Of a stretch of DNA of 15,752 nucleotides, positions 1 through 15,506 are shown one piece after another (the stretch's first letter is position 1; each line of letters begins with the position of its first letter). The position numbers and the translations under genes were made by a program. The notes under the pieces were generated by a model. The model searched no databases. It saw only the letters and a program-made list of their open reading frames with translations, and was not told the origin of the DNA. Source of the DNA: an uncultured bacterium (GTDB taxonomy: Bacteria > Myxococcota_A > UBA9042 > PHBI01); contig CALHXW010000350.1 of assembly GCA_938040325.1 (NCBI GenBank), positions 1 through 15,752 of the forward strand. The letters are read 5' to 3'.

Positions 1-3000
1 CGGCGCTGGGCGTCGCAAAGCGAGATGAACTTCTGCAAGAGCTCGGGATGGGTGTGCTGGATGTCGTCGAGATAGAGCATGACGTTGTTGCCCATCTCGA
101 GGGCCAGGTTGATCTTGTCGACCTCTTGGCGCGCTGTGGCGTTGGGAGCCTCTGAGGGGTCGAGCGAGTGCACGCTGTGGCCAAGCGAGGGCCCGTTCAC
201 CTTCATGAAGACCAGCCCCAGGCGGCTCGCGACGTACTCCATGAGCGTGGTCTTGCCGTAGCCTGGTGGCGAGATCAGCAGCAAGAGGCCCATGAGATCG
301 GTCCGCTTGCCTGCCCCGAGCGCGCCCATCTGCTTGGCGAGGTTGTCGCCGATGAGGTGCAAGTAGACGTCGTTGATGAGCTTGTTGCGCACAAACGACG
401 TCAGCACCCGCGGCTTGTACTCGTCGATCCGCAGCGCGTCCTTGGCCGTGTGGACATGCTCGGTCAAGAGCTGTCGGTAGCGCGCGTACGCCGGCACTTC
501 CGTGTCGATATAGGCGCGCACGCGCGGCAGCAGCTCGTCGAGGCGCACCACGAGCTGGCGGTCCACAACGCGCGGGTGCTGCCCAAGCAGGCCTTCGACG
601 CGGGCACTCATCACCGCTTGGCTCACGTGGCGCTCAAGGCGCTCGGCCGTCAAGCACAGCACGGCTGCCTCAAGTCGGTAGTCCGCCCACTCTGAGGCGC
701 GCGCGTCATCGGACGTCGCAATCGCCGCATCGACCCAGGCAAGCGCCAGCAACACCTGCGCGTCGTGGTCGCCGCCCAGCCTCCTCAGGTCGTGCTCGAG
801 GCTGTCCGGATGCAGCTTGAGCACATGGTCGCGCAGCGTCGCGGCCGCGCCGCTCGTGATGAACTGCGGCCGGGCAGCCGTCAGCTCGTGAGCCAGGTAC
901 CGACCGGCCTCCGTCACGTCGCGCACGTCGGTCGGGATGGTCGCCGCTGCAAAGAATGACGTCATCGCCGAGCTGAGCTCCTCGGCGAGCGTGTCGAGGG
1001 CTGGAAGCTCGGAGACCACCTGGAGCTGGCCGAGGCTCAGTGCCCGCGCATGCCACCGGCCCGCCGTGTCCTCGCCGTCGTGGAACGCCCAAAAGAGACA
1101 CGCCAGCGCACGCGCGCTGGGCCCGTAACGCAAGAGCCCCGCGGTCTTGCGCAAGCTCAAGAGACTGCCGACGATCGCCGCGGCATCCGCATCGTGTAGG
1201 CCGCGCTCATAGCCTTCAGCGTAGCGCTCAGCCGCGTAGGCGCGCACCAGCTTCAGCAGGCCATCGCCTTCTTCCAGGACGGCCGCTTCGAGACGCGCGA
1301 CGCTGAGGCCGTCTTGAGACGCTTCGGCAGCGAAGAGCACCCGAGCCGCGAGATACTCGCCGCGGTAGAGCTCGGGCGACTCGGACACCACGTCCCGGCT
1401 CCAGAACCGGCGCGTGCTGAGAAAGTCGGGGTCGTCGATCGCTTGGTAGTAGTCGGTCCCCGTCGCGTGCAGGGCCATCTTGTCCCCACGCGGCACGACG
1501 GTCAGCTCCAGCGCCTGGGTGTTGACGTTGAAGCGGTGCTTTCCGAGCTTGATGACGTCAGTGCCATCTTCGAAGAGCTCAAGCTTGTCGCGTAGGCCCC
1601 GCAGGGCTTCTTGCTGGGCGGCCTTGAGCTTGGCCATCAGCTCGTCGGACTTGACGCTATCGCCAAGCTCCAGCAGCTGCTCTGCGAGCTGGCGAAGCTT
1701 GAGCACCATCGCGTCGCTGGCGAAGTAGCCGTTGAGCTCGTCTTCAGCCTTGAATGCGCGCGCACGACGACCGATGCCGTCGAGGACACGCTGGCCGGCG
1801 GTGGCTAGGTTTTGGGCTCGCCGCTGAAGCGCGTCCAAGAGCGTCTGCTTCTTGGTCGCGAACGCCTCGTAGACCTCCTCGCGCTTGTCGGCGAGGGTCG
1901 CGATGAACTCGTCGAACTCGCTGAAGCGGCTCTCAAGCTCCTCCAGCTGGACCATCATGCGCGAGAGCTGGGTGTCGCAAGCGTCGGGGCTGTCGGCCAT
2001 GGCGATGGCGCTGCCGACGGACTGCCCGAAGAGCCGAAACTGGGCAGCGAACGCGTCGCGGCCTTCGTTGCCGAGCAGGGTCTTGCGCTGGCTCTGATAG
2101 ACCGCTCGGACCCGGTTGATGTGGGAGAACGTCTCGCTGATGCCTTCGAGGATGCGGGTTCGTGCCGTGGCGTCCTCGATGTCGAGGGTCGAGACCACCT
2201 CGGTGAGGATGTTGAGCCCGGTCGTTAGGCCTTCGATCGACTCGCCGTGCGGCTCGATGTCGGCGACCTTCTCCGTCTCCTCAATGACCGCGAGCAGCTC
2301 CTCGGCACGGTCGCGAACCGGCGTCAGCGCATCGTCGCCGAGCAAGAACGTGACGGCGCCTTTGCTGATGGTGTCGAAGGCATCGCTGACTTCCTGCTCG
2401 AGCGCACCGATGCCTTCGAGGTCCACGTAGCGTAGCTCTTTCAACGTGATGAGGTGACCACGCTGGGTCCGCAGCTTCGACAGCGCCTCCATGAAGGGCT
2501 CGATCGCCTCCCACCGCGTGGGGTCGAGCCCCCGCAAGAGCTCTCGCTGAGTCTCGGTGGCAGCCTCAAGCGCTGACGCCGCCTGGGCGCGCATGGCCAG
2601 CACGCGCTCAAACTCGTCGATGATCTTTTCGGCATTGCCACGCAGAGACGCCAGCGTCGCCTTGAGGTCGCCAGCCTCCGCTTCGCCGAGCCAGTAGTAG
2701 CTGTCCTCCATTCGCGTCAGAGCCGCGACCAAGTCCTCGTAGCGCTGACGGCTGGGTTCCTGATTCTCCACGCGCCGGGCAATGGCGACCGCCTCGCTGA
2801 TGCCGCGCACCAGATCGGCATTGCCGATCTTGCCGAGCGTTCCACCCACGCCGGCCGCTTCGGCAGCGAACTCGACCGACATGAACGGCGTCTGCCAGAC
2901 CTGCATCGGGTGCACGCGGGTCGGCTCATCTACATGGCGAAAGACCAGCATTCGGCCATCGTCGAAGACCGAGTAGCCGTCGCAGTGAATCGGATTCTGA

Positions 3001-4169
3001 ACCGCCTGACGGATGAGGTTGTAGGGCAGCAGCGTGAAGTGCCCACCGTCTTGTTGGTAGAAGACGTAGAGCACGTCTTCGCCGTTCGGCGACCGGATCG
3101 CGCGCTTAAAGCTCAGGTCGGTCGTGTCGACATCAAAGACCTTGTACTCGCCGCTCTGCAGGTAGTAGCCGCCAGGAAAGATGACGCCGTGGTCTTCCGG
3201 TAGCGAGACGCACGCTTGGCCAATCGCATCGATACGGACCGCTTGGTGCGCACGCGTGTCGAACACGAGAAAGCGCCAGACGCTCTCGCGGAAGGGCAGG
3301 AGCTTGAGCAGCACGAGGGTTCCGACCTCAGCGTACTCGATCTTGAGGTCATCGAGGGACTGGCGGTCGTCGTCCACATCGGACTCAAAGACCACTCGCC
3401 CCGCTGGGGTGTTGTCCTCAACCTTGAGCCGCAGCTTGCCGCCCAGCGCGCTGACGAAGACCTTGTCGAGCACCGAGACGTAGGGCTCTTTGCCGCTGCG
3501 CTGGTCCTCACGCGTGGTCGAGGTCCAGACGAAGTCGTGACTGGGCGGAAACGTGTAGTCGCGCTCTCCGCGGTTGTCGACGTAGGTGGCCTGGCCGTCG
3601 GGATCGAGGCGCCAGCGCAAGACCTTGATGTCGCTGACCTGATTGCCAACCCGAAACACCGCCAACAGCTGGTCGCCCGCGTCGTTGAGTCGCAGATGGG
3701 CGAGTCGCGCCATCTTGTAGAACTCGACGAGCTCACGGAACTCGCGCTCAAACGCTTCGCCTCCGAAGAGCCGAGGGTTGACCTCGCCCGCAGGCACCGA
3801 TGAGAGGTCAAAGCCTTCATCGGTCTCTTCGAAGCGGTGCAGACTGAAGACTTCGTCGACTTCGGTGCGCTCGCGCAGCTGGACCTGGACGTTGTAGCCG
3901 AAGAGCAAGTGGTCGCCCAAGGCGACAATATCGCGCGGCACACAGTTGTTTTCGGTGCGCACCCGCTCGTTGCCGATCAGCGTCAGCTCGCTGGTGCCGA
4001 ATGCCTGTTGCCGCTCCAGGTTGAGCGCGTCGGCTTTCGCCCGCAGCTCTCCTGCGTCGGCCTCAAGCCTGCGGCGCAAGACCTCGTAGTTGCCGCTGCT
4101 CAGCGCATCGTCGGCGCCGGTTGTTTCTGCCCCGGCGCCGCCCTCGGAGTTGTCGGTCGTGTCAGCCAA
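1..4169 (-). CDS. Giant uncharacterised protein, at least 1389 aa within the window. The N-terminus is at 4169 and the C-terminus runs off the left edge. A AAA+/P-loop ATPase module sits near the C-terminal end; upstream are ~1250 aa of mixed beta-rich and helical/coiled-coil regions. Last gene of the yqiJ-flotillin operon.
   Basis: I reverse-complemented and translated the whole interval by hand in the frame whose codons occupy plus positions 3n..3n+2. There is no in-frame stop from 4169 to 1, and the third codon position is G/C almost throughout. Walker A ...LLLLISPPGYGKTTLMEYV... lies at ~246-290 (rc). Walker B ...GNNVMLYLDDIQHTHPELL... lies at ~50-100 (rc). The first in-frame start is TTG at 4169-4167, two codons after the flotillin TAG (4176-4178), with no ATG/GTG for ~150 codons although coding bias begins immediately. 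It is absent from the supplied ORF track because it lacks ATG and runs off the window. Confidence 0.75.
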   Translation of the reverse strand, partial: MADTTDNSEGGAGAETTGADDALSSGNYEVLRRRLEADAGELRAKADALNLERQQAFGTSELTLIGNERVRTENNCVPRDIVALGDHLLFGYNVQVQLRERTEVDEVFSLHRFEETDEGFDLSSVPAGEVNPRLFGGEAFEREFRELVEFYKMARLAHLRLNDAGDQLLAVFRVGNQVSDIKVLRWRLDPDGQATYVDNRGERDYTFPPSHDFVWTSTTREDQRSGKEPYVSVLDKVFVSALGGKLRLKVEDNTPAGRVVFESDVDDDRQSLDDLKIEYAEVGTLVLLKLLPFRESVWRFLVFDTRAHQAVRIDAIGQACVSLPEDHGVIFPGGYYLQSGEYKVFDVDTTDLSFKRAIRSPNGEDVLYVFYQQDGGHFTLLPYNLIRQAVQNPIHCDGYSVFDDGRMLVFRHVDEPTRVHPMQVWQTPFMSVEFAAEAAGVGGTLGKIGNADLVRGISEAVAIARRVENQEPSRQRYEDLVAALTRMEDSYYWLGEAEAGDLKATLASLRGNAEKIIDEFERVLAMRAQAASALEAATETQRELLRGLDPTRWEAIEPFMEALSKLRTQRGHLITLKELRYVDLEGIGALEQEVSDAFDTISKGAVTFLLGDDALTPVRDRAEELLAVIEETEKVADIEPHGESIEGLTTGLNILTEVVSTLDIEDATARTRILEGISETFSHINRVRAVYQSQRKTLLGNEGRDAFAAQFRLFGQSVGSAIAMADSPDACDTQLSRMMVQLEELESRFSEFDEFIATLADKREEVYEAFATKKQTLLDALQRRAQNLATAGQRVLDGIGRRARAFKAEDELNGYFASDAMVLKLRQLAEQLLELGDSVKSDELMAKLKAAQQEALRGLRDKLELFEDGTDVIKLGKHRFNVNTQALELTVVPRGDKMALHATGTDYYQAIDDPDFLSTRRFWSRDVVSESPELYRGEYLAARVLFAAEASQDGLSVARLEAAVLEEGDGLLKLVRAYAAERYAEGYERGLHDADAAAIVGSLLSLRKTAGLLRYGPSARALACLFWAFHDGEDTAGRWHARALSLGQLQVVSELPALDTLAEELSSAMTSFFAAATIPTDVRDVTEAGRYLAHELTAARPQFITSGAAATLRDHVLKLHPDSLEHDLRRLGGDHDAQVLLALAWVDAAIATSDDARASEWADYRLEAAVLCLTAERLERHVSQAVMSARVEGLLGQHPRVVDRQLVVRLDELLPRVRAYIDTEVPAYARYRQLLTEHVHTAKDALRIDEYKPRVLTSFVRNKLINDVYLHLIGDNLAKQMGALGAGKRTDLMGLLLLISPPGYGKTTLMEYVASRLGLVFMKVNGPSLGHSVHSLDPSEAPNATARQEVDKINLALEMGNNVMLYLDDIQHTHPELLQKFISLCDAQR

Positions 4170-4175
4170 GGCCTG

Positions 4176-6338
4176 CTACCCGAGCTTGAAGCTGTCGAGA
4201 CCAAGCTTCTTGGCATGGGCCGCAAGCTCCGCCAGCTTCGTCTTCGTGGCATCGTCGCCGCCGGTCGCAAGCTTTGCCAACACGGCAGCAATCGACAGGT
4301 TCTGAAGCTCCGCTGCGCCGAGCGCCGGCCGCGAGAGCACCTGCTTGAGGTCGGCGGGGAAGTTGGCTTCACCGCTGAGGTACTCAGACCCGAGCGTCTG
4401 AAGGGTCTCCGAGTTCTCAACCGTTGCGTCGATGGAGCGCCCCATCGACACGGCGCCGACCATCTTGTCGAAGAAGTCGCCGTCGCCGCCGACGATCTGA
4501 ATGTTGGCGCTCTCGAACGCCGCCTTCATCGCCTCGGCTTGAGCCTCCGCAATGTGCCGCTGGTTGCGGATGTGCTCGAGCTTCACGTCCTTTTCGACCT
4601 CAAGCTTGATGCGGAACTCTTCGTGCTCGCGACCGACGCCATCGAGCGCCTTCATTGCGTTCGCCTTCTCCGCGAGACCCGCGGCTTCGGCCGTAAGTTT
4701 CTCGCGGATGGCCTCGGCCTCAGCGTGGCCCTTCTTCTCGATCGCGCCGGCGTGGGCGAGCTCGACGTTGACCTTGGCGAGCCCGATTCCCTCGTCGCCC
4801 TTCGCGGCCGCCAGCTTCTGCTCGGCGATGACCGCTGCTTCCGCCAAGCCCACCTTCTCGGCGGCCTCGGCTTCTGCCTTGGTGACCGTGACTTGCGCCA
4901 GGCCCTTCTCGCGAATGACGTTGGCCTCGGCGTGACCGACCTTCTGGGTCGCGGCTGCGTCCGCTTCTTTCACTTTCACCGCTGCCAGCCCGGTTGCTGC
5001 CGCCGCCGCCTGCGTGCCTTCAGCGCGTCGGATCTCGGCCGCTGCAGCCTTGTCCGCCACCGACAGCTCGGCTTCCGCCAGCGTCAGCCGCTCTTTGGCC
5101 TTGAACTTCGCCGCCTCCTGCTGTGCCTCAGCGGCCTTCAGGTCACGGACCAGCCCCTCCTGCGCATCAGCCTCAGCGCCGATGATCTTGACGTCAGCGA
5201 GACGCTTGGCCTCAGCGTTGGCCACGAGGTCTTTGATCTTCTCTTCCTGCTCGGCGACCTCGCGGTCGACGGCAACGCGCTGGCTGACAACGTCGGCGAT
5301 GGCCTTCCGCTCAACCTCCAGCTGCTTCTCTTTGTCGATGCGCAAAAGCTCCACCTCGCGCTCGCGACCGATGGCCTCAAGCTGCGTGTCCTTGGCGACC
5401 CGCTCCGCCTCGATGCCAACGACGCGCTCGCGGTTCTTCTGGGCGACCTCGACCTGCCGTTGACGGGCCTCGTCCTGAACCGCCACTTCTTCTTCAGCCG
5501 CAATCTTTGCAAGCGCCGCACGCTTCGCCTCGGCGGCCTCGACCGCTTCGGTCTCGGCCTTCTCGCGCGCGACCATCACGGCGATCTCACGCTGCTGCTT
5601 GGCGCGGGCGTCCGCTTCTTGGCGGTCGAGCTCCATCAAGGCTTCCTCGGCCGCGACGTTCTCCTTCTTGATGGCCTTACGCTCGGTCTGCTTGAGCTCG
5701 TTGGTCATCACGTTCTGTTCGGTCGTCAGCGCTGTGATCTTTCGAATGCCCTGCGCATCGAGGATGTTCTTGGGGTCCATGTGCTCGAGGGACGTCTGCT
5801 CGAGGTAGTCGATGGCCGCTTCCTCAAGAATGTAGCCGTTGAGATTGCCCATCACCTCAATGATCTCGTCCTTCCACTTGTGACGCTCTTGATAAAGCTG
5901 CTCGAAGTCCATGCGCTTGCCGACGGTCTTGAGCGCCTCTGAGAAGCGGGCAAGAAAGAGCGTCTCGAGCGTGGCCTGGTCTGACGCGCGGCGGACGCCG
6001 ATGGTCTGGGCAACTCGCAGGACCGACTCGGACACCGGGTTGACCCGCACGTAAAACGACACCTTGATGTCGGCGCGGATGTTGTCGGCGCAGATCAAGC
6101 CGTCCTTGCCGTGCCGCTCAAGCTCGATGGTCTTGAGCGCAATGTCCATGACCTCAGCGCGGTGCACGATCGGCAGAACGACCGCCCCGGTGAAGTAGAC
6201 GTCAGGCTCGTTCTTCATGCGGTTGACGATGAGCGCCTGGCCCTGGTCGACCTTGCGGTAGAAGCGAGCAACCATGATGAGGACGCCGAGCAGCACAATG
6301 GCGACGGCAGCTAGGACGATGACCCAGACGGGAGGCAT
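4176..6338 (-). CDS. Flotillin-family (SPFH/band-7) membrane-microdomain protein, YqiK/FloT-like, 720 aa.
   Basis: The ORF runs ATG 6338 to TAG 4176. An AGGAGA Shine-Dalgarno lies 5 nt upstream (rc of 6344-6349). It has an N-terminal TM helix (MPPVWVIVLAAVAIVLLGVLIMVARF), an SPFH core (VDQGQALIVNRMKNEPDVYFTGAVVLPIVHRAEVMDIALKTIELE...IRADIKVSFYVRVN), then a ~350-aa E/A/K/R-rich coiled coil and a flotillin-type C-terminal region. Codon bias is strong. Confidence 0.9.
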   Translation of the reverse strand: MPPVWVIVLAAVAIVLLGVLIMVARFYRKVDQGQALIVNRMKNEPDVYFTGAVVLPIVHRAEVMDIALKTIELERHGKDGLICADNIRADIKVSFYVRVNPVSESVLRVAQTIGVRRASDQATLETLFLARFSEALKTVGKRMDFEQLYQERHKWKDEIIEVMGNLNGYILEEAAIDYLEQTSLEHMDPKNILDAQGIRKITALTTEQNVMTNELKQTERKAIKKENVAAEEALMELDRQEADARAKQQREIAVMVAREKAETEAVEAAEAKRAALAKIAAEEEVAVQDEARQRQVEVAQKNRERVVGIEAERVAKDTQLEAIGREREVELLRIDKEKQLEVERKAIADVVSQRVAVDREVAEQEEKIKDLVANAEAKRLADVKIIGAEADAQEGLVRDLKAAEAQQEAAKFKAKERLTLAEAELSVADKAAAAEIRRAEGTQAAAAATGLAAVKVKEADAAATQKVGHAEANVIREKGLAQVTVTKAEAEAAEKVGLAEAAVIAEQKLAAAKGDEGIGLAKVNVELAHAGAIEKKGHAEAEAIREKLTAEAAGLAEKANAMKALDGVGREHEEFRIKLEVEKDVKLEHIRNQRHIAEAQAEAMKAAFESANIQIVGGDGDFFDKMVGAVSMGRSIDATVENSETLQTLGSEYLSGEANFPADLKQVLSRPALGAAELQNLSIAAVLAKLATGGDDATKTKLAELAAHAKKLGLDSFKLG

Positions 6339-6619: not shown

Positions 6620-7378
6620 TCAGGCGTCGTGACCGATCATCAGCTCGTCTGCCGCCTGGACCATGAAGGTCTGCGCGTCGGCGTCGTAGTCGATGATGAC
6701 GGCTTTGTCGCCGCGACCGAGGTGCGCGGCGTCGTCGGCTCGGATGTCGACCAGCAGCTCGTTGGAGCCAACGATGCAGCGACCTTGACCAAAGCGCGCG
6801 TCGACCCGCCCGGTCGTCAGCTCCACGACCTGACCGATCAGGTCGCGCTGCTGGCGTCCGGGGTGCTCGGCAAAGACCGGCGCCAGCGGTCGGATCGCCA
6901 GCGATGTGCCAAGGAGACCGCCTATACCTGCGATCCCGAGGGTGGTGATCTGGGAGATTCCGTCGGGAAGCACAGGGGCCAGCGCGTCGAGCGTGAAGTA
7001 GCTGATGACCCAGCCGATCAGCGAGAACGCGCTGAAGGCAATGGTGACTGGGACACTGCGCAGCTTCAGCGCGCTGAGCAACCCCGTCCCGGTGTCGAGC
7101 GCACCTTCCATACCCTCCGCGCCTGCCTCAAGAGCGCCGTCGGCACCGGCTTCGAGCGCACCCTCGAGCGCACCGTCCGCAGCTCCATCGAGGGCCCCGT
7201 CGAGCGCGCCGTCGAGCGCGCCATCGGCGGCACCCTCGAGTGCGCCATCGGCGCCTCCCAGCGCATCGATGTCGACCGCGCCGACCAAAAAGACCAGCCA
7301 GTAGAGCAGCGAGATCGTCAGAAAGACCGTAAAGATCCCGGTGGGCATTGCGAATATCGCATCGAGAAAGATGTCCAT
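6620..7378 (-). CDS. YqiJ/NfeD-like inner-membrane protein (DUF1449-type). N-terminal TM, acidic (DGAL)n repeat, two further TM helices, C-terminal OB-fold beta-barrel. First gene of the flotillin operon.
   Basis: The stop is TGA at 6620-6622 (rc). The ATG at 7378 gives MDIFLDAIFAMPTGIFTVFLTISLLYWLVFLVGAV. The track's longer form starts at a TTG at 7432, and another in-frame ATG lies at 7348. The C-terminal segment LIGQVVELTTGRVDARFGQGRCIVGSNELLVDIRADDAAHLGRGDKAVIIDYDADAQTFMV has the NfeD-type short beta-strand OB-fold pattern. The arrangement matches the classic E. coli yqiJ-yqiK and B. subtilis nfeD-floT pairing (established knowledge). Confidence 0.75.
   Translation of the reverse strand: MDIFLDAIFAMPTGIFTVFLTISLLYWLVFLVGAVDIDALGGADGALEGAADGALDGALDGALDGAADGALEGALEAGADGALEAGAEGMEGALDTGTGLLSALKLRSVPVTIAFSAFSLIGWVISYFTLDALAPVLPDGISQITTLGIAGIGGLLGTSLAIRPLAPVFAEHPGRQQRDLIGQVVELTTGRVDARFGQGRCIVGSNELLVDIRADDAAHLGRGDKAVIIDYDADAQTFMVQAADELMIGHDA
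7095..7262 (-). repeat. In-frame tandem ~15-nt repeat (GAGCGCGCCGTCGAG-like) inside the yqiJ-like gene, encoding an acidic (D/E-G-A-L)n low-complexity tract.
   Basis: The direct nucleotide repeats cgagcgcaccctcgag / cgagcgcgccgtcgag / cgagcgcgccatcggc are visible in the sequence. The translated tract is GGADGALEGAADGALDGALDGALDGAADGALEGALEAGADGALEAGAEGMEGALD. Confidence 0.8.
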
Positions 7379-7859: not shown

Positions 7860-8894
7860 CTACTTTCGCCGCTCTCCAGTGCGCACTGCGCCGGCGTGCT
7901 CAGGTTGCCCCATGAGCTCATAGATCGCTGCGAGGCGGCTGCGCGCTGCGTGCCGACAGGCGGCGGTCTTGCAGCTCCGCGCGACAACGGTGAGCGCCTC
8001 TGCCACGGTCGGCAGCTTCGCTGCGAAGGTCCCGAGGTCACGCCGGCTCTCTGTCGCTAGCGGGGACTCGGACGCGTTGGCGTCGTCGAGCTCCCTCAGC
8101 AACGACAGCAGCTCGGTCGTGGCCGACTGGATGTGACCGGCGTTGTAGTGACACCACGCGAGCTTGTAGCGGGCGTAGCGCGAGAGCGCTGTGTCTGGGC
8201 CGGCGACGGCCTGCTGGTACGCCGCGGTTGCTGCCGACAGGCGCGCCGCGTCAAACTCAAGGTCGGCGAGCTGGAGCGCGGCGGCCTGTTGGTCTTGTCC
8301 TGTCGGACCGGCCGCGACCCGCTGCAAGGTGGTCCGCGATGTTGCACGTTCACCGAGACGAAGCTGAAGCTGGGCGTAGAGCAGGTCACGCCGAGCGTCG
8401 AGCGGGTCTGTCGTTGCTGTCGTCGCATCGGGCCAGTCCGCGAGGAGACGGAGCGCGATGCGCGCGAGGCGGCCTCGGTCTACGCGCTGGGTCTCCGGTC
8501 GGTCGACGACATCGAGCAGCTGCTCGACGGCGCTGATCAGCGACGCACGACGATCATCCTGGGCTCGCGACAGGCGCTGCTTCGGCACCGGTGTGGCCAG
8601 GACAGTCCCTGCTGGCGCCAGGAGCTCACCGCCGATGACGACGTCATCGAAGTTGTAGAACTTGGTCGTCGTCCGGGCCTTAGGGGTCGCCGTGCTGCCG
8701 GACGCTGCTGGCGGCGAGGCAAAGGTTGCGGTCGGCGCGAGAACCAGGGCCGAGAGCACTGCGACGAGAGCGCCGAGGCGGGCTGGCCGTTTGTGTCCGG
8801 ATTCCGGATCGACGAGCCGCGAAGGAATGCGCGGCAAGCGCCGAGCGCGAGGGGTGGGTGGCTTAGGTTTGTGCTCTTTTAGCGTCTTGCTCAT
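7860..8894 (-). CDS. Secreted or membrane-anchored TPR-like repeat protein, 344 aa.
   Basis: The ORF runs ATG 8894 to TAG 7860. The basic Pro-rich N-terminus (KPKPPTPRARRLPRIPSRL) is followed by a hydrophobic signal/TM segment (LGALVAVLSALVLAPTATFASP). There is a conserved-looking KFYNFDDVVIGGELLAP motif. The C-terminal half is helical and TPR-like (YARYKLAWCHYNAGHIQSATTELLSLL). The first 30 codons use poorer codons, so an in-frame TTG further downstream (LPRIPSRLV...) is an alternative start. Confidence 0.7.
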   Translation of the reverse strand: MSKTLKEHKPKPPTPRARRLPRIPSRLVDPESGHKRPARLGALVAVLSALVLAPTATFASPPAASGSTATPKARTTTKFYNFDDVVIGGELLAPAGTVLATPVPKQRLSRAQDDRRASLISAVEQLLDVVDRPETQRVDRGRLARIALRLLADWPDATTATTDPLDARRDLLYAQLQLRLGERATSRTTLQRVAAGPTGQDQQAAALQLADLEFDAARLSAATAAYQQAVAGPDTALSRYARYKLAWCHYNAGHIQSATTELLSLLRELDDANASESPLATESRRDLGTFAAKLPTVAEALTVVARSCKTAACRHAARSRLAAIYELMGQPEHAGAVRTGERRK

Positions 8895-8960
8895 CGCGGC
8901 GCCTCGTCAGGACCGGGGTTGAGCGATGCCGACAGCTCGGCGTTGAGAAAGTTCCGCAGG

Positions 8961-9210
8961 GCGGGCCTGAGCCTGAGCGTGGGCGTGGGCGCGGGCCTGA
9001 GCCTGGGCGTGGGCGTGGGCGTGGGCCTGAGCCTAAGCGCGGGCGTGGGCGCGGGTCTGAGCCTGAGCCTGAGCGTGGGCGTGGGCGTGGGCGCAGGCCT
9101 GAGCCTGAGCGCGGGCGTGGGCGTGGGCGTGGGCCTGAGCCTGAGCGCGGGCGTGGGCGCGGGCCTGAGTGTGGGCGCGGGCCTGAGCCTGAGCGCGGGC
9201 TTGGGCATGG
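8961..9210. repeat. Perfect-phase tandem minisatellite, with 6-nt sub-repeats nested in ~30-nt units: (GGCCTGAGCCTGAGC)(GTGGGCGTGGGCGCG). There are eight units of 30, 30, 30, 42, 36, 30, 18 and 30 nt.
   Basis: Read directly from the sequence. All unit-length variation is in multiples of 6. The plus strand is G-rich with repeated GGGCGTGGGCGTGGGCGTGGG tracts (e.g. 9005-9025). The region is open in three frames: plus GLSLSVGVGA..., minus ALRLRPAPTPTP... and minus PRPRPRSGSG.... Confidence 0.9.
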
Positions 9211-9288
9211 GCTCACCCGCCACCCAGCTCGCCTCACCCGGGGTGGCGGATGCGTGCGGGCTTGGTGCTTGAGACCTGCTTGTTGGGG

Positions 9289-10326: not shown

Positions 10327-10992
10327 ATGTCCACGACCTCAAGACGCACGTTCCTACGCCACATCGCCATGACGACCGCCGGGGTCATCGTTGCTCCGCA
10401 CGCTCTTGGGTGCGCAAAGGGCGGCGCCAACGGAACGCCGGCGCTCGCCCCCGCAGCGCCCCCTCCGACGCCGCAGCAGTGCGTCCCGACAAGCCCCGAT
10501 CTGCGCGGACCCTACTACCTGCCTGGCGCCCGCCAGCTCTCGCGCGGTGGCAAGCTCGCGCAGCTTGCTGGGCGACCGGTCGTGGTGAGCGGCGCCGTCC
10601 GCAACTCGCTCTGCTCCCCCGTCCATGGCGCCACCATCGAAGTCTGGCAGGCCGACGCCGACGGGCACTACCACGACGACCTGCTGCGGGCGACGCTGGC
10701 CCTCGGCCAAACCGATACCTACAGCTTCCGCACGATCGTCCCCGGCAACTACCGTGAGCCTGGCGGCTGGCGGCCGGCACACATCCACTTCCGGGTTCAG
10801 GCACCCAACCACCCAGCGCTTGAGACCCAGATGTACTTCGCCGGTGACCCGTACCTCGCCGACAAGGACAGCTGCCAGGTGTGCGACTCACACTCGCCAG
10901 ACCGCCACATCCCGATGACGCGCGGCGATGATGGGGTCGAGCACGTGCAGTTCGACATCACGCTTCGCGCCATCACCTTCGCGGCCCCTTGA
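10327..10992 (+). CDS. Tat-exported intradiol ring-cleavage dioxygenase-family protein, 221 aa.
   Basis: An ATG at 10327 has a GGAG Shine-Dalgarno 6 nt upstream. A twin-arginine signal is present (MSTTSRRTFLRHIAMTTAGVIVAPHALGCA). The intradiol-dioxygenase hallmarks are GPYYLPGA, IEVWQADADGHY and GGWRPAHIHFRV (the H-x-H iron-ligand pair). The 347-aa track ORF starting at 9949 is an upstream extension with no RBS. Confidence 0.8.
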   Translation: MSTTSRRTFLRHIAMTTAGVIVAPHALGCAKGGANGTPALAPAAPPPTPQQCVPTSPDLRGPYYLPGARQLSRGGKLAQLAGRPVVVSGAVRNSLCSPVHGATIEVWQADADGHYHDDLLRATLALGQTDTYSFRTIVPGNYREPGGWRPAHIHFRVQAPNHPALETQMYFAGDPYLADKDSCQVCDSHSPDRHIPMTRGDDGVEHVQFDITLRAITFAAP

Positions 10993-14171: not shown

Positions 14172-15506
14172 TCAGCGCGTTGGCACCAGCGCCGGAGCGG
14201 GCTCGCAGACCCCACCGCAGGCGATGAGCGCGTTCGTGCCGAAGCCGCAGCCGTTGTCGAAGTTGCAGAGCTCGCCATCGCCGCAGTCGTTGTCGCTGTA
14301 GCAAATCTCGGCCGGTGGCTCGGGCGCGCAGACGCCGGGGCACAGGATGAGCGCGTTGGCGCCGCCGCCGCCGCACCCCTGCTCGAAGCTGCAGTACTCG
14401 CCGTCGGCACAGGCATCATCGGTGTGACAGAAGGTCGGAGCCGGGGGCTCGCACACGCCGGCACAGGCGATCAGCGCGTTGGCGCCAAAGCCGCAGCCGT
14501 TGTCGAAGTTGCAGACGTCGCCGTTGTCGCAGTCGGCGTCGCTAAAGCAGCTGTCGTCGACGACCGGCTCGCAGACGCCGCCGCAAGCGATCAGCGCGTT
14601 GGTGCCGAATCCACAACCGTCGAGGTTGCAGTACTCGCCGGCGCCGCACTCGCTGTCGCTGTAGCAGAGGTCGTCGACGGGCGGGTCAACGCACTCGCCG
14701 GGGCAGGCCATCTTCGCGTTGATGGGGCCGCCGCCGCAGCCGTCGAAGCTGCAGATCTGGCCGCCATCGCAGTCGGTGTCCACGTAGCAGCTGTCGTCGA
14801 TCGGGTCCGGCTCGCACACGCCGCCGCAAGCGATCAGCGCGTTGGCGCCGAAGCCACAGCCATCGAGGTTGCAGAACTCCTCGGCGCCGCAGTCGGCGTC
14901 GCTGTAGCAGGTGTCGTCGACGACCGGCTCGCAGACGCCCGGGCACGCGAGCAGGGCGTTGGGGGTACCAAAGCCGCAGCCATCGAAGTTGCAGAACTCG
15001 CCGGCGCCGCACTCGGCGTCGCCGTAGCAGCCCTCGTCGATCGGCTCATCGACGCACTGTCCGGGGCAGGCGATCTTGGCGTTGAAGCCGCCGCCGCCGC
15101 AGCCGTTGTCGAAGCTGCAGACTTGACCCTTGCCGCAGTCGCCGTCGCTGTAGCAGCCGCTGTTGTCGGGCACGCACTCGCCGTAGCAAACGGCCGGGCA
15201 GACCGTGCCGGCGCCGCAGCCAGGAGGCGGGTTGCACACGCCGTCGCTGACGCTGCAGTGCGATCCCTCGCCACACTCGTTGTCGCTGTAGCAGCCTGTG
15301 GGCTCAGGCTCATCGCACTGGAACTCACAGCCGCCGTCCACGCAGGCCCAAGCGCCTTCGCAGTCGGGTGCCTCGAGGCCGTCGCACTCGCTCGCCGCGC
15401 TGCACTCGTCTGGCTCGGTGTCTCCGCCGCCGCAGTTGTTGTCACCGGGCGCCATGAGCAGCAGTGCTGCTGCCCCGAGAAAGAGCGCGTTCTTAAGTGT
15501 GTTCAT
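14172..15506 (-). CDS. Secreted cysteine-rich repeat protein, 444 aa. It has a Sec signal peptide, an ~50-aa N-terminal Cys-rich cap and nine tandem ~40-aa six-cysteine repeats.
   Basis: An ATG at 15506 has an AAGGA Shine-Dalgarno 8 nt upstream. The signal peptide is MNTLKNALFLGAAALLLMAPG. The repeats include CYSDADCGAEEFCNLDGCGFGANALIACGGVCEPDPIDDS, CYSDSECGAGEYCNLDGCGFGTNALIACGGVCEPVVDDS and CFSDADCDNGDVCNFDNGCGFGANALIACAGVCEPPAPTF. GC3 bias is extreme. The stop is TGA at 14172-14174. The track's 526-aa version, starting at 15752, has no signal-peptide logic and no RBS. Confidence 0.85.
   Translation of the reverse strand: MNTLKNALFLGAAALLLMAPGDNNCGGGDTEPDECSAASECDGLEAPDCEGAWACVDGGCEFQCDEPEPTGCYSDNECGEGSHCSVSDGVCNPPPGCGAGTVCPAVCYGECVPDNSGCYSDGDCGKGQVCSFDNGCGGGGFNAKIACPGQCVDEPIDEGCYGDAECGAGEFCNFDGCGFGTPNALLACPGVCEPVVDDTCYSDADCGAEEFCNLDGCGFGANALIACGGVCEPDPIDDSCYVDTDCDGGQICSFDGCGGGPINAKMACPGECVDPPVDDLCYSDSECGAGEYCNLDGCGFGTNALIACGGVCEPVVDDSCFSDADCDNGDVCNFDNGCGFGANALIACAGVCEPPAPTFCHTDDACADGEYCSFEQGCGGGGANALILCPGVCAPEPPAEICYSDNDCGDGELCNFDNGCGFGTNALIACGGVCEPAPALVPTR
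14175..15280 (-). repeat. Nine ~117-123-nt tandem coding repeats inside the Cys-rich gene, highly similar at the DNA level.
   Basis: Strings such as gcgatcagcgcgttggcgccgaagccgcagccgttgtcgaagttgcag recur with few substitutions at ~14465, ~14590 and ~14830. Confidence 0.8.

Follow-up and report, generated by a model that had tools for sequence, protein, structure and literature searches.

The window analyzed here is one entire metagenome-assembled contig of 15,752 nucleotides (CALHXW010000350.1, assembly GCA_938040325.1; G+C ~68%) from an uncultured bacterium of the Myxococcota_A, and the element in question is a compound hexamer minisatellite in the spacer between a methyltransferase gene and a gene coding for an envelope-type protein. 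With moderate confidence, we take this array to be, most probably, the repetitive body of a small leader open reading frame (ORF), specific to its lineage, that is translated from the minus strand and coupled to the envelope gene (Table 1). Five features of the candidate ORF point this way: its anatomy, the Shine-Dalgarno (SD) and start context, the codon statistics, a bias towards synonymous departures within the repeat, and the overlap with the start of the downstream gene. The locus is a new single-locus example of arrangements of known kinds (coding minisatellites kept in frame, upstream ORFs coupled to the following gene, and GC-rich arrays of G-tracts), and nothing points to either a new mechanism or a dispersed family.

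The array contains 43 in-phase hexamers, counting the decayed units at its edges, and hexamer parsing reveals no out-of-phase insertion or deletion. There are three hexamer types, which on the plus strand read CTGAGC, GTGGGC and GCGGGC, and they are laid out as (CTGAGC)1-3(GYGGGC)2-4, with decay at both ends of the array. This gives about eight higher-order units, of 30, 30, 30, 42, 36, 30, 18 and 30 nt, each of them a multiple of 6 nt in length. Tandem Repeats Finder (TRF) reports the segment 8961-9212 at periods of 6 (39 copies), 30 (8.0 copies) and 36 (5.7 copies), and both analyses bear out the original prediction of an in-phase hexamer array with length steps of 6 nt. The 24-mer core has 13 matches in the window (three or fewer mismatches, 0.01 expected), all within the array; exact internal repetition extends to 30 nt at most, and no 31-mer is duplicated. 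The array is set in a 394 nt spacer (8895-9288) bounded by the stop of the methyltransferase (9289) and the ATG of the downstream gene (8894), with both genes on the minus strand, and the G+C content of the array segment is 79%. No significant local similarity was found that would indicate an origin by duplication of nearby sequence, for example of the P/R-rich start of the downstream gene. Scans for promoters and terminators gave no hits, with no promoter-like elements flanking the array, and no Rfam covariance model matches at its gathering score anywhere in the window. Folding of the plus-strand DNA departs only marginally from shuffled sequences (z = -1.8).

The repeat had been described as open in three reading frames, and we find four that are fully open across 8961-9210: GLSLSVGVGA and PEPERGRG on the plus strand, and APTPTLRLR and PRPRSGSG on the minus strand. 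A fifth, the minus-strand AHAQ frame of the downstream gene, is interrupted within this segment by a single TAG at 9035-9033. In the two frames that are rich in G+C at the third codon position (GC3), no single substitution in the consensus yields a stop codon, and their openness is therefore uninformative. Several of these frames can be set aside. The -2 frame (PRPRSGSG, GC3 50%) and the +2 frame (PEPERG) have poor GC3 and strongly negative codon scores; the former does run into the downstream gene as had been noted, and is the methyltransferase frame continued past its stop, ending at 8863. The AHAQ frame (-0), which is in frame with the downstream gene, contains a further stop (TGA, 8909-8907) and has a non-coding tail.

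The candidate leader ORF uses the -1 frame of the minus strand. In this frame the hexamers are dicodons, CCC-ACG for Pro-Thr, CCC-GCG for Pro-Ala and CTC-AGG for Leu-Arg, and the dicodon reading yields about eight units of the form [(P-T/A)2-4 (L-R)2-3]. The predicted product is MAGEPM-(P-K/A/T)n(LR)2-3 x8 ...PALRNFLNAELSASLNPGPDEAPR, with an isoelectric point of 12.0, 27% Pro and 16% Arg; the repeat makes up nearly the whole of its 110 residues, and it lacks any folded domain, signal peptide or membrane segment. Only two GAGG/GGAG motifs occur on the minus strand of the spacer, one for each of two starts, GTG 9223 and the downstream ATG. A GGAG or GAGG lies 6-8 nt upstream of 7 of the 9 confident starts in the contig, compared with 4.8% of all ATG/GTG triplets, with the caveat that the confident genes use ATG and the candidate leader begins with GTG. 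The overlap of the leader stop with the downstream start, which had been predicted for the APTPTLRLR frame, is confirmed by both the sequence and the ORF list. A fusion of the leader ORF to the downstream gene by frameshifting was considered and rejected, as the 13-nt overlap window has no slippery site and the sequence is the same in two assemblies.

The codon statistics were computed from a table of 4,572 codons in ten genes of the contig, with log-odds scores calibrated on true frames and on shadow frames sharing their third positions. The unique 3' tail of the ORF is coding-like in the -1 frame only. Scored over 21 codons (8895-8960), the tail has +7.6 bits, compared with +10.1 +/- 5.7 in true-gene windows; just 1.4% of shadow-frame windows attain the score of the tail, and the opposite-strand frame of the same segment scores -7.6. 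A sliding profile of 12 codons runs at -8 to -14 upstream of 9242, rises to about 0 at the start, and reaches +2.9, +9.4 and +2.1 in the tail before falling to -10.5 and -12.5 in the windows that span and follow the leader stop. The tail was also called as a partial gene on the Logan contig that covers it (L004; Prodigal-type gene calling). The last unit of the array, at its junction with the tail, is CCC GCC CTG CGG and encodes P-A-L-R in common codons. It differs from the array form, CCC GCG CTC AGG, by three substitutions, all of which are synonymous in the -1 frame, whereas two are non-synonymous in the plus frame. Taking all departures from the three hexamer types together, 7 of 10 are synonymous in the -1 frame, where 3.2 would be expected under neutrality (P = 0.014-0.017); in the plus frame 5 of 10 are synonymous (P ~0.2), and three of the remaining four frames have one each. 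Apart from Arg, codon choice in the -1 frame is good, CTC being the top Leu codon, ACG the co-top Thr codon, and GCG and CCC second choices, so that the codon anomaly of the array reduces to a single amplified founder hexamer, CTC-AGG. This founder is one synonymous step from the CTG-CGG of the junction unit.

Several observations weigh against a translated leader. One is codon usage within the array, which scores -72 bits over 82 codons in the -1 frame, below every shadow-frame window, because of its 15 AGG, 1 AGA and 27 CCC codons; elsewhere in the contig, a pair of genuine coding arrays reach +0.56 and +0.60 bits/codon. The dependence of this frame on the rare AGG codon had been foreseen: 15 AGG and 1 AGA are among the 18 Arg codons of the leader ORF, and AGG accounts for just 5 of the 293 Arg codons (1.7%) in the contig genes. 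The synonymous excess leans on the junction unit, since without it the count is 4 of 7 and not significant, and it also depends on counting PT and PA as separate types. The GTG start is located in the stem of a GC-rich hairpin, within its 3' arm, with the GAGG in the loop. The hairpin has a minimum free energy (MFE) of -27.7 kcal/mol over 58 nt, is statistically unremarkable against shuffled sequences (z = -0.69), and is possibly a U-less terminator or a translational-control stem. The leader ORF has no homolog at E <= 0.01 among 5.8 billion proteins, and the start variants of this and the other repeat ORFs that were tested are absent from the protein collection; such an absence is weak evidence, because the repeat-containing 252-aa gene called on L004 (6620-7378, see below) is also missing from it. 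No array or ORF of this kind precedes the homologs of the downstream gene in the contexts L010-L014 and on one Joint Genome Institute (JGI) contig. Finally, several of the tests were picked after viewing the sequence, and their combined support is to some degree overstated.

If the leader is translated, a simple account of the locus can be given. The array would have grown, and is probably still changing, by replication slippage or by unequal exchange between hexamers, as its structure suggests. Each such step would add or remove 6 nt, and the reading frame would always be kept, so that ribosomes starting at the GAGG and GTG would in every case reach the UGA that overlaps the downstream AUG. 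At the ATGA they could both terminate and re-initiate, in the manner of -4 coupling, while covering a stretch of C-rich and weakly structured RNA. The role of the ORF would more likely be that of a translated leader that delivers ribosomes and prevents polarity than that of a peptide with its own activity. The G-tracts on the template strand and the other open frames would then be by-products of the dicodon composition.

The array could instead be a minisatellite that arose by slippage in a transcribed spacer, has no coding role and insulates the two genes through Rho loading and/or a template-strand G-quadruplex (G4), and we regard this as a doubtful but still credible explanation. Its template G-tracts could impede RNA polymerase, and the tail, the GAGG and the ATGA would all be coincidences. 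The sense RNA is 53% C and 26% G over 250 nt and contains the top 78-nt C/G window (2.32) on that strand of the contig. It has no excess structure relative to shuffled sequences (z = 0.33), and its MFE of -94.5 kcal/mol, compared with -130.8 +/- 8.4 kcal/mol expected for its G+C, is weaker by 4.3 residual standard deviations (~36 kcal/mol). This is the composition of a Rho utilization (rut) region, namely at least ~80 nt of C-rich, G-poor and weakly structured nascent RNA. The G-rich strand is indeed the template for the minus-strand flanking genes, as had been stated, and the array has 25 GGG runs and the highest 250-nt G4Hunter mean in the contig (0.78). The potential for G4 formation is nonetheless more modest than the original prediction of several canonical G3-N3-G3-N3-G3-N3-G3 tracts and strong G4 potential. 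There are only two such tracts, which are the sole motifs of this kind in the window and both lie inside the only exact 30-nt internal duplicate, at a 108-nt offset; 16 windows of 25 nt have G4Hunter scores of 1.2 or more, and the maximum over 25 nt is a moderate 1.44, with none reaching the threshold of 1.5. Under a coding reading the G-tracts are a by-product, because they are CCC (Pro) codons spaced every 6 nt. The AGG-rich frame is atypical for genes and has no homolog, and random NNS hexamer arrays (N, any base; S, G or C) are often codon-like in one frame, all of which suits an untranslated spacer. What such a spacer leaves unexplained is a coding-like tail bounded exactly by the stop, the gene-like spacing of the GAGG before the first in-frame start, and the junction unit with its synonymous PALR. 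Elsewhere in the contig, a segment that is G-rich on the minus strand (10439-10474, within a dioxygenase gene at 10327-10992) has the strongest local G4Hunter score (-1.84), exceeding every 25-nt window of the repeat.

A further way to account for the coding-like tail is as a relic, in which a gene once ATGA-coupled to the downstream gene from its upstream side was lost except for its 3' end (8895-8960), with the array having expanded in the remnant after a rearrangement brought in the methyltransferase. We consider this unlikely. It agrees with a tail that is coding-like next to an array that is not, with gene context that is not conserved around the homologs, and with a distant Polyangia relative (L001) in which an upstream tetratricopeptide repeat (TPR) gene with a P/A-rich low-complexity tail ATGA-overlaps the homologous gene. 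However, the tail peptide is not significantly similar to the C-terminal end of the upstream protein in L001 (score 25, shuffle P = 0.34), despite a shared 'LRNF' and 'PxPD', and a relic predicts neither the GAGG and GTG at the head of the frame nor the in-phase synonymous continuation of the repeat into the tail. The suggestion of a contingency locus, in which changes in copy number switch or tune expression of the downstream envelope gene, is very improbable. Tandem hexamers are slippage-prone in principle, and assembly breaks on both sides of the array in a population of two haplotypes would fit a length polymorphism. But the observed length differences are all multiples of 6, which means that a change in copy number alters only the length of the spacer or peptide and never the reading frame, and there are no recognizable promoter elements around the array. 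A plus-strand gene for the hydrophobic Gly/Leu/Ser/Val/Ala peptide (GLSLSVGVGA)n, starting at TTG 8919 or an internal GTG and ending at TGA 9272, is the least plausible of these alternatives and can almost be dismissed. Its score within the array is gene-typical (+35 bits), and an AGGA lies 6 nt before the TTG. The predicted exclusive use of top-preference codons is right for GGC and AGC, although CTG, GTG and GCG are second choices; all five are common. But 40% of random NNS-phased hexamer arrays match the in-array score in simulation, and we reject the plus-strand ORF on its unique flanks, which have a non-coding appearance: the C-terminal flank has -11.5 bits over 19 codons against an expectation of about +9, the N-terminal flank has -2.6 bits over 14 codons and includes TTG, AGA and AGG, and the score of the 21-codon tail region in the plus frame (-7.6) is attained by 0.2% of true-gene windows. 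Moreover, its database matches are only VGVGVG shadow ORFs on short contigs, and it would have to fit, in antisense, into the gap between two minus-strand genes, with a divergent start 24 nt away and no promoter-like site. The low-complexity peptide gene that had been offered as one possibility is the best supported of the original options, albeit in the minus ALRLRPAPTPTP frame and not in the codon-optimal plus frame. The remaining concern is that the copy number, the order of units, or even the join of the two contig halves was made by the assembler, since the array is spanned by one assembly only and its copy number rests on that assembly. An independent Logan assembly of run ERR9287624 has the same locus at 99.84-99.9% identity and is split around the array, with contig L003 ending at 9278, 68 nt outside the repeat, and L004 beginning at 8966. 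There are 16 single nucleotide differences between the two assemblies (11 synonymous, 3 non-synonymous, 2 intergenic), and at least two haplotypes are present. An assembler with k = 31 would not break here from exact repetition, given that duplicated 31-mers are absent, and the Logan breaks reflect either a drop in coverage over the 79% G+C segment or a larger allelic difference across 8967-9277. Mis-assembly nevertheless seems most improbable: exact repeats of at most 30 nt allow reads to order the array unambiguously, individual units carry marker substitutions, both flanks have the same G+C content and codon usage, and L004 does reach into the first (junction) unit.

A translated leader of this type resembles several known systems, and differs from each of them. 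The closest are MIRUs (mycobacterial interspersed repetitive units, which are VNTR loci), tandem repeats found directly upstream of gene starts between co-oriented genes, where an ORF in the orientation of the gene overlaps its start codon by -4 nt and passes on translation (PMC12548453). The array described here is likewise between co-oriented genes, and the ORF through it ends in a -4 overlap. In contrast, MIRUs have 40-100-bp units, are dispersed at tens of mycobacterial loci and are apparently mobile, whereas the array in the window is built of hexamers with a 30-36-nt higher order and does not match this unit size, the 24-mer core is unique to the array within the 15.7-kb contig, and the host is myxobacterium-like. 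A full myxobacterial counterpart of the MIRUs can be imagined, as an expandable repeat that is always in frame, has its own SD and start, and delivers ribosomes to the start of an envelope gene. Unit number would differ between co-existing haplotypes and hence cause the Logan breaks, and the AGG codons, Pro-rich run and G-tracts would set downstream transcription and translation, making it a tunable, copy-number-dependent coupling device and possibly a member of a dispersed family. We think it distinctly unlikely that the locus is all of this. No further copies of the array are present elsewhere in the 15.7-kb contig, and the 24-mer CTGAGCCTGAGCGYGGGCGYGGGC has 5 matches among 241 million JGI metagenome records, all single and unrelated (among them an ABC ATPase 'LSLSVGAGE' motif and a QAHAQ tract in a homeobox gene of a eukaryote); viral contigs have no match to it. 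The check for a dispersed repeat that had been proposed thus yielded no related copy outside the array in the contig, the JGI metagenomes or the viral contigs. A near-alike compound hexamer array, (CTGAGC)4(GTGGGC)2(CTGCGC GTGGGC)5..., is present in JGI contig Ga0314689_10033575 (L005, 733-860), where it sits in a eukaryote-like homeobox protein, with its opposite strand coding for a QAHAQAHA tract. The likeness is one of convergence between low-complexity sequences, and this array is not related to that in the window.

Pro-rich dipeptide linkers are well known, including the X-Pro spacers of TonB-type proteins, the PT linkers of glycoside hydrolases and the AP-rich linkers of E2 subunits. The predicted leader product is similar in that its (P-T)n and (P-A)n runs come from in-phase hexamers, vary in length by whole units, and have a predicted conformation that is extended and disordered; it differs in that the P-X runs alternate with (Leu-Arg)2-3 encoded by the rare AGG, and in that the repeat is nearly the entire product and is not attached to a folded domain. 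GC-rich minisatellites that form G-quadruplexes are exemplified by human CEB1 and CEB25, and G4s in bacterial promoters and template strands are also known. The G-rich strand of the array similarly has G3 tracts with 3-nt loops and is the template, but with only the two four-tract motifs, a G4Hunter peak of 1.44, and G-tracts that a coding reading fully accounts for through CCC codons. We found nothing specific in the literature on G4 or minisatellites in myxobacteria, or on run ERR9287624. The resemblance to a rut region is in the long, C-rich, G-poor sense RNA that is less structured than expected, and the difference is that this RNA would be covered by ribosomes if the leader ORF is translated. 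Simple-sequence contingency loci are known in Neisseria and Haemophilus, and here too a short-unit tandem tract adjoins an envelope gene, although a unit length that is a multiple of 3 does not allow frame switching.

Table 1. Coordinates of the array, the candidate leader ORF and the flanking genes in the window.
Feature	Coordinates	Strand	Description
Compound hexamer minisatellite	8954-9211	.	TRF, hexamer parsing, motif count vs shuffles; higher-order period 30-36 nt
Candidate leader ORF	8891-9223	-	110 codons from GTG 9223, 105 from ATG 9208; stop TGA 8893-8891
SD-like GAGG	9232-9235	-	8 nt before GTG 9223, the first in-frame start
SD-like GAGG	8902-8905	-	7 nt before the downstream ATG, within the leader ORF tail
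GC-rich hairpin	9214-9252	-	12-nt arms, 15-nt loop; 37 nt after the methyltransferase stop
Unique 3' tail of leader ORF, NFLNAELSASLNPGPDEAPR	8895-8953	-	Coding-like in the -1 frame only
ATGA overlap	8891-8894	-	Leader TGA 8893-8891 overlaps downstream ATG 8894-8892; -4 coupling geometry
Canonical G4 motif GGGCGTGGGCGTGGGCGTGGG	9005-9025	+	Regular-expression scan of the window, G4Hunter; PTPTPT codons on the coding strand
Second canonical G4 motif	9113-9133	+	Regular-expression scan; sequence identical to the first
Class I S-adenosylmethionine (SAM)-dependent methyltransferase, 252 aa	9289-10047	-	Start MPLSPEE, stop TAG 9291-9289; Pfam Methyltransf_11/25/12/31, MetW
Downstream gene, envelope-type protein, 344 aa	7860-8894	-	P/R/K-rich N-terminal tail, one hydrophobic segment, C-terminal YARYKLAWCHYNAGH

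The gene upstream of the array had been called simply a methyltransferase. It is a class I SAM-dependent enzyme, and is of a small-molecule (UbiE/MetW-like) type and not a DNA methylase, with NCBIfam giving sub-threshold UbiE/MetW-type matches only. The protein collection contains an exact copy of this 252-aa product, which was also called on L003. A DNA methyltransferase with a link to defense was considered and discarded, as the enzyme is of the small-molecule type and the PADLOC matches are negligible.

The gene downstream of the array had been labeled a TPR gene, which holds for its TPR-like C-terminal part (a sub-threshold TPR_21 match) but does not do justice to the whole, an orphan-like envelope protein with a CglF-like N-terminal motif (TKFYNFDD..GEL..P); the match to CglF, a gliding motility protein, is also sub-threshold. 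An exhaustive phmmer search finds 136 remote relatives in which the TPR-like C-terminal part is conserved, a word-indexed protein search returns only the identical product (P0001), and a scan of genome contigs gives two remote loci. Recognizable relatives of the gene are present only in metagenome-assembled genomes of Polyangia and Bradymonadales, which, together with a Cys-rich repeat protein encoded on the contig (see below), makes a myxobacterium-like source probable. The first 40 codons (8775-8894) have low GC3, with log-odds of -3.4 and -7.1 per 20 codons, and are less gene-like than the 21-codon tail of the leader. There are alternative in-frame starts at TTG 8837 and GTG 8759, and ATG 8894 has the best ribosome-binding site. 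The family as a whole is poorly annotated, with an N-terminal F/Y-x-F-D-D..G-E-L..P motif, which gives the weak match to CglF, and a TPR-like C-terminal part, YAxYKLAWCxYNLGE. In L001 (member at 295-588) the upstream TPR gene overlaps the family gene by ATGA, and in L011 (member at 491-1321) the family gene follows an OmpA/Pal-like gene, in a position like that of CpoB/YbgF.

Two other repeat-containing genes are present on the minus strand of the contig. A second tandem array at 7152-7254 (period 12/24/36, consensus TCGAGCGCACCG) is within gene 6620-7378 and encodes ADGALEGA-type repeats in a 252-aa protein with a hydrophobic N-terminus, in normal codons (+0.56 bits/codon). This protein has no Pfam, NCBIfam or PADLOC match and is absent from a collection of 15 billion proteins, even though it was called on a Logan contig. 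The other gene (14172-15506) codes for a 444-aa secreted-looking protein with about eight Cys-rich repeats of 40 residues (14200-15157), which have a period of 120 nt and a higher order of 363 nt and a marginal Dickkopf_N-like Pfam match; it looks like a typical myxobacterial Cys-rich repeat protein. At the other end of the contig, a minus-strand gene at 1-4169 runs off the contig start and codes for at least 1,389 aa of a protein in which DUF3686 ('ATPase involved in DNA repair', E 5e-188) and DUF7902 are present along with an AAA domain at the C-terminus. The uncharacterized 720-aa (4176-6338) and 252-aa proteins are encoded after it on the same strand, and the three together may constitute an uncharacterized ATPase system. 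For this gene group PADLOC gives only a negligible match, to LmuB.

The locus illustrates a need for caution in annotating GC-rich genomes. The most codon-optimal frame of the array is on the wrong strand, and the likeliest frame is one that codon statistics reject by virtue of a single amplified rare codon; among the four open frames, discrimination comes only from the unique flanks and the start and stop context. If the array is the body of a leader ORF, then a slippage-prone repeat can persist harmlessly right before a gene, with the hexamer phase keeping the coupled upstream ORF intact. This would be the logic that has been proposed for the mycobacterial MIRUs, found here in an unrelated GC-rich lineage.

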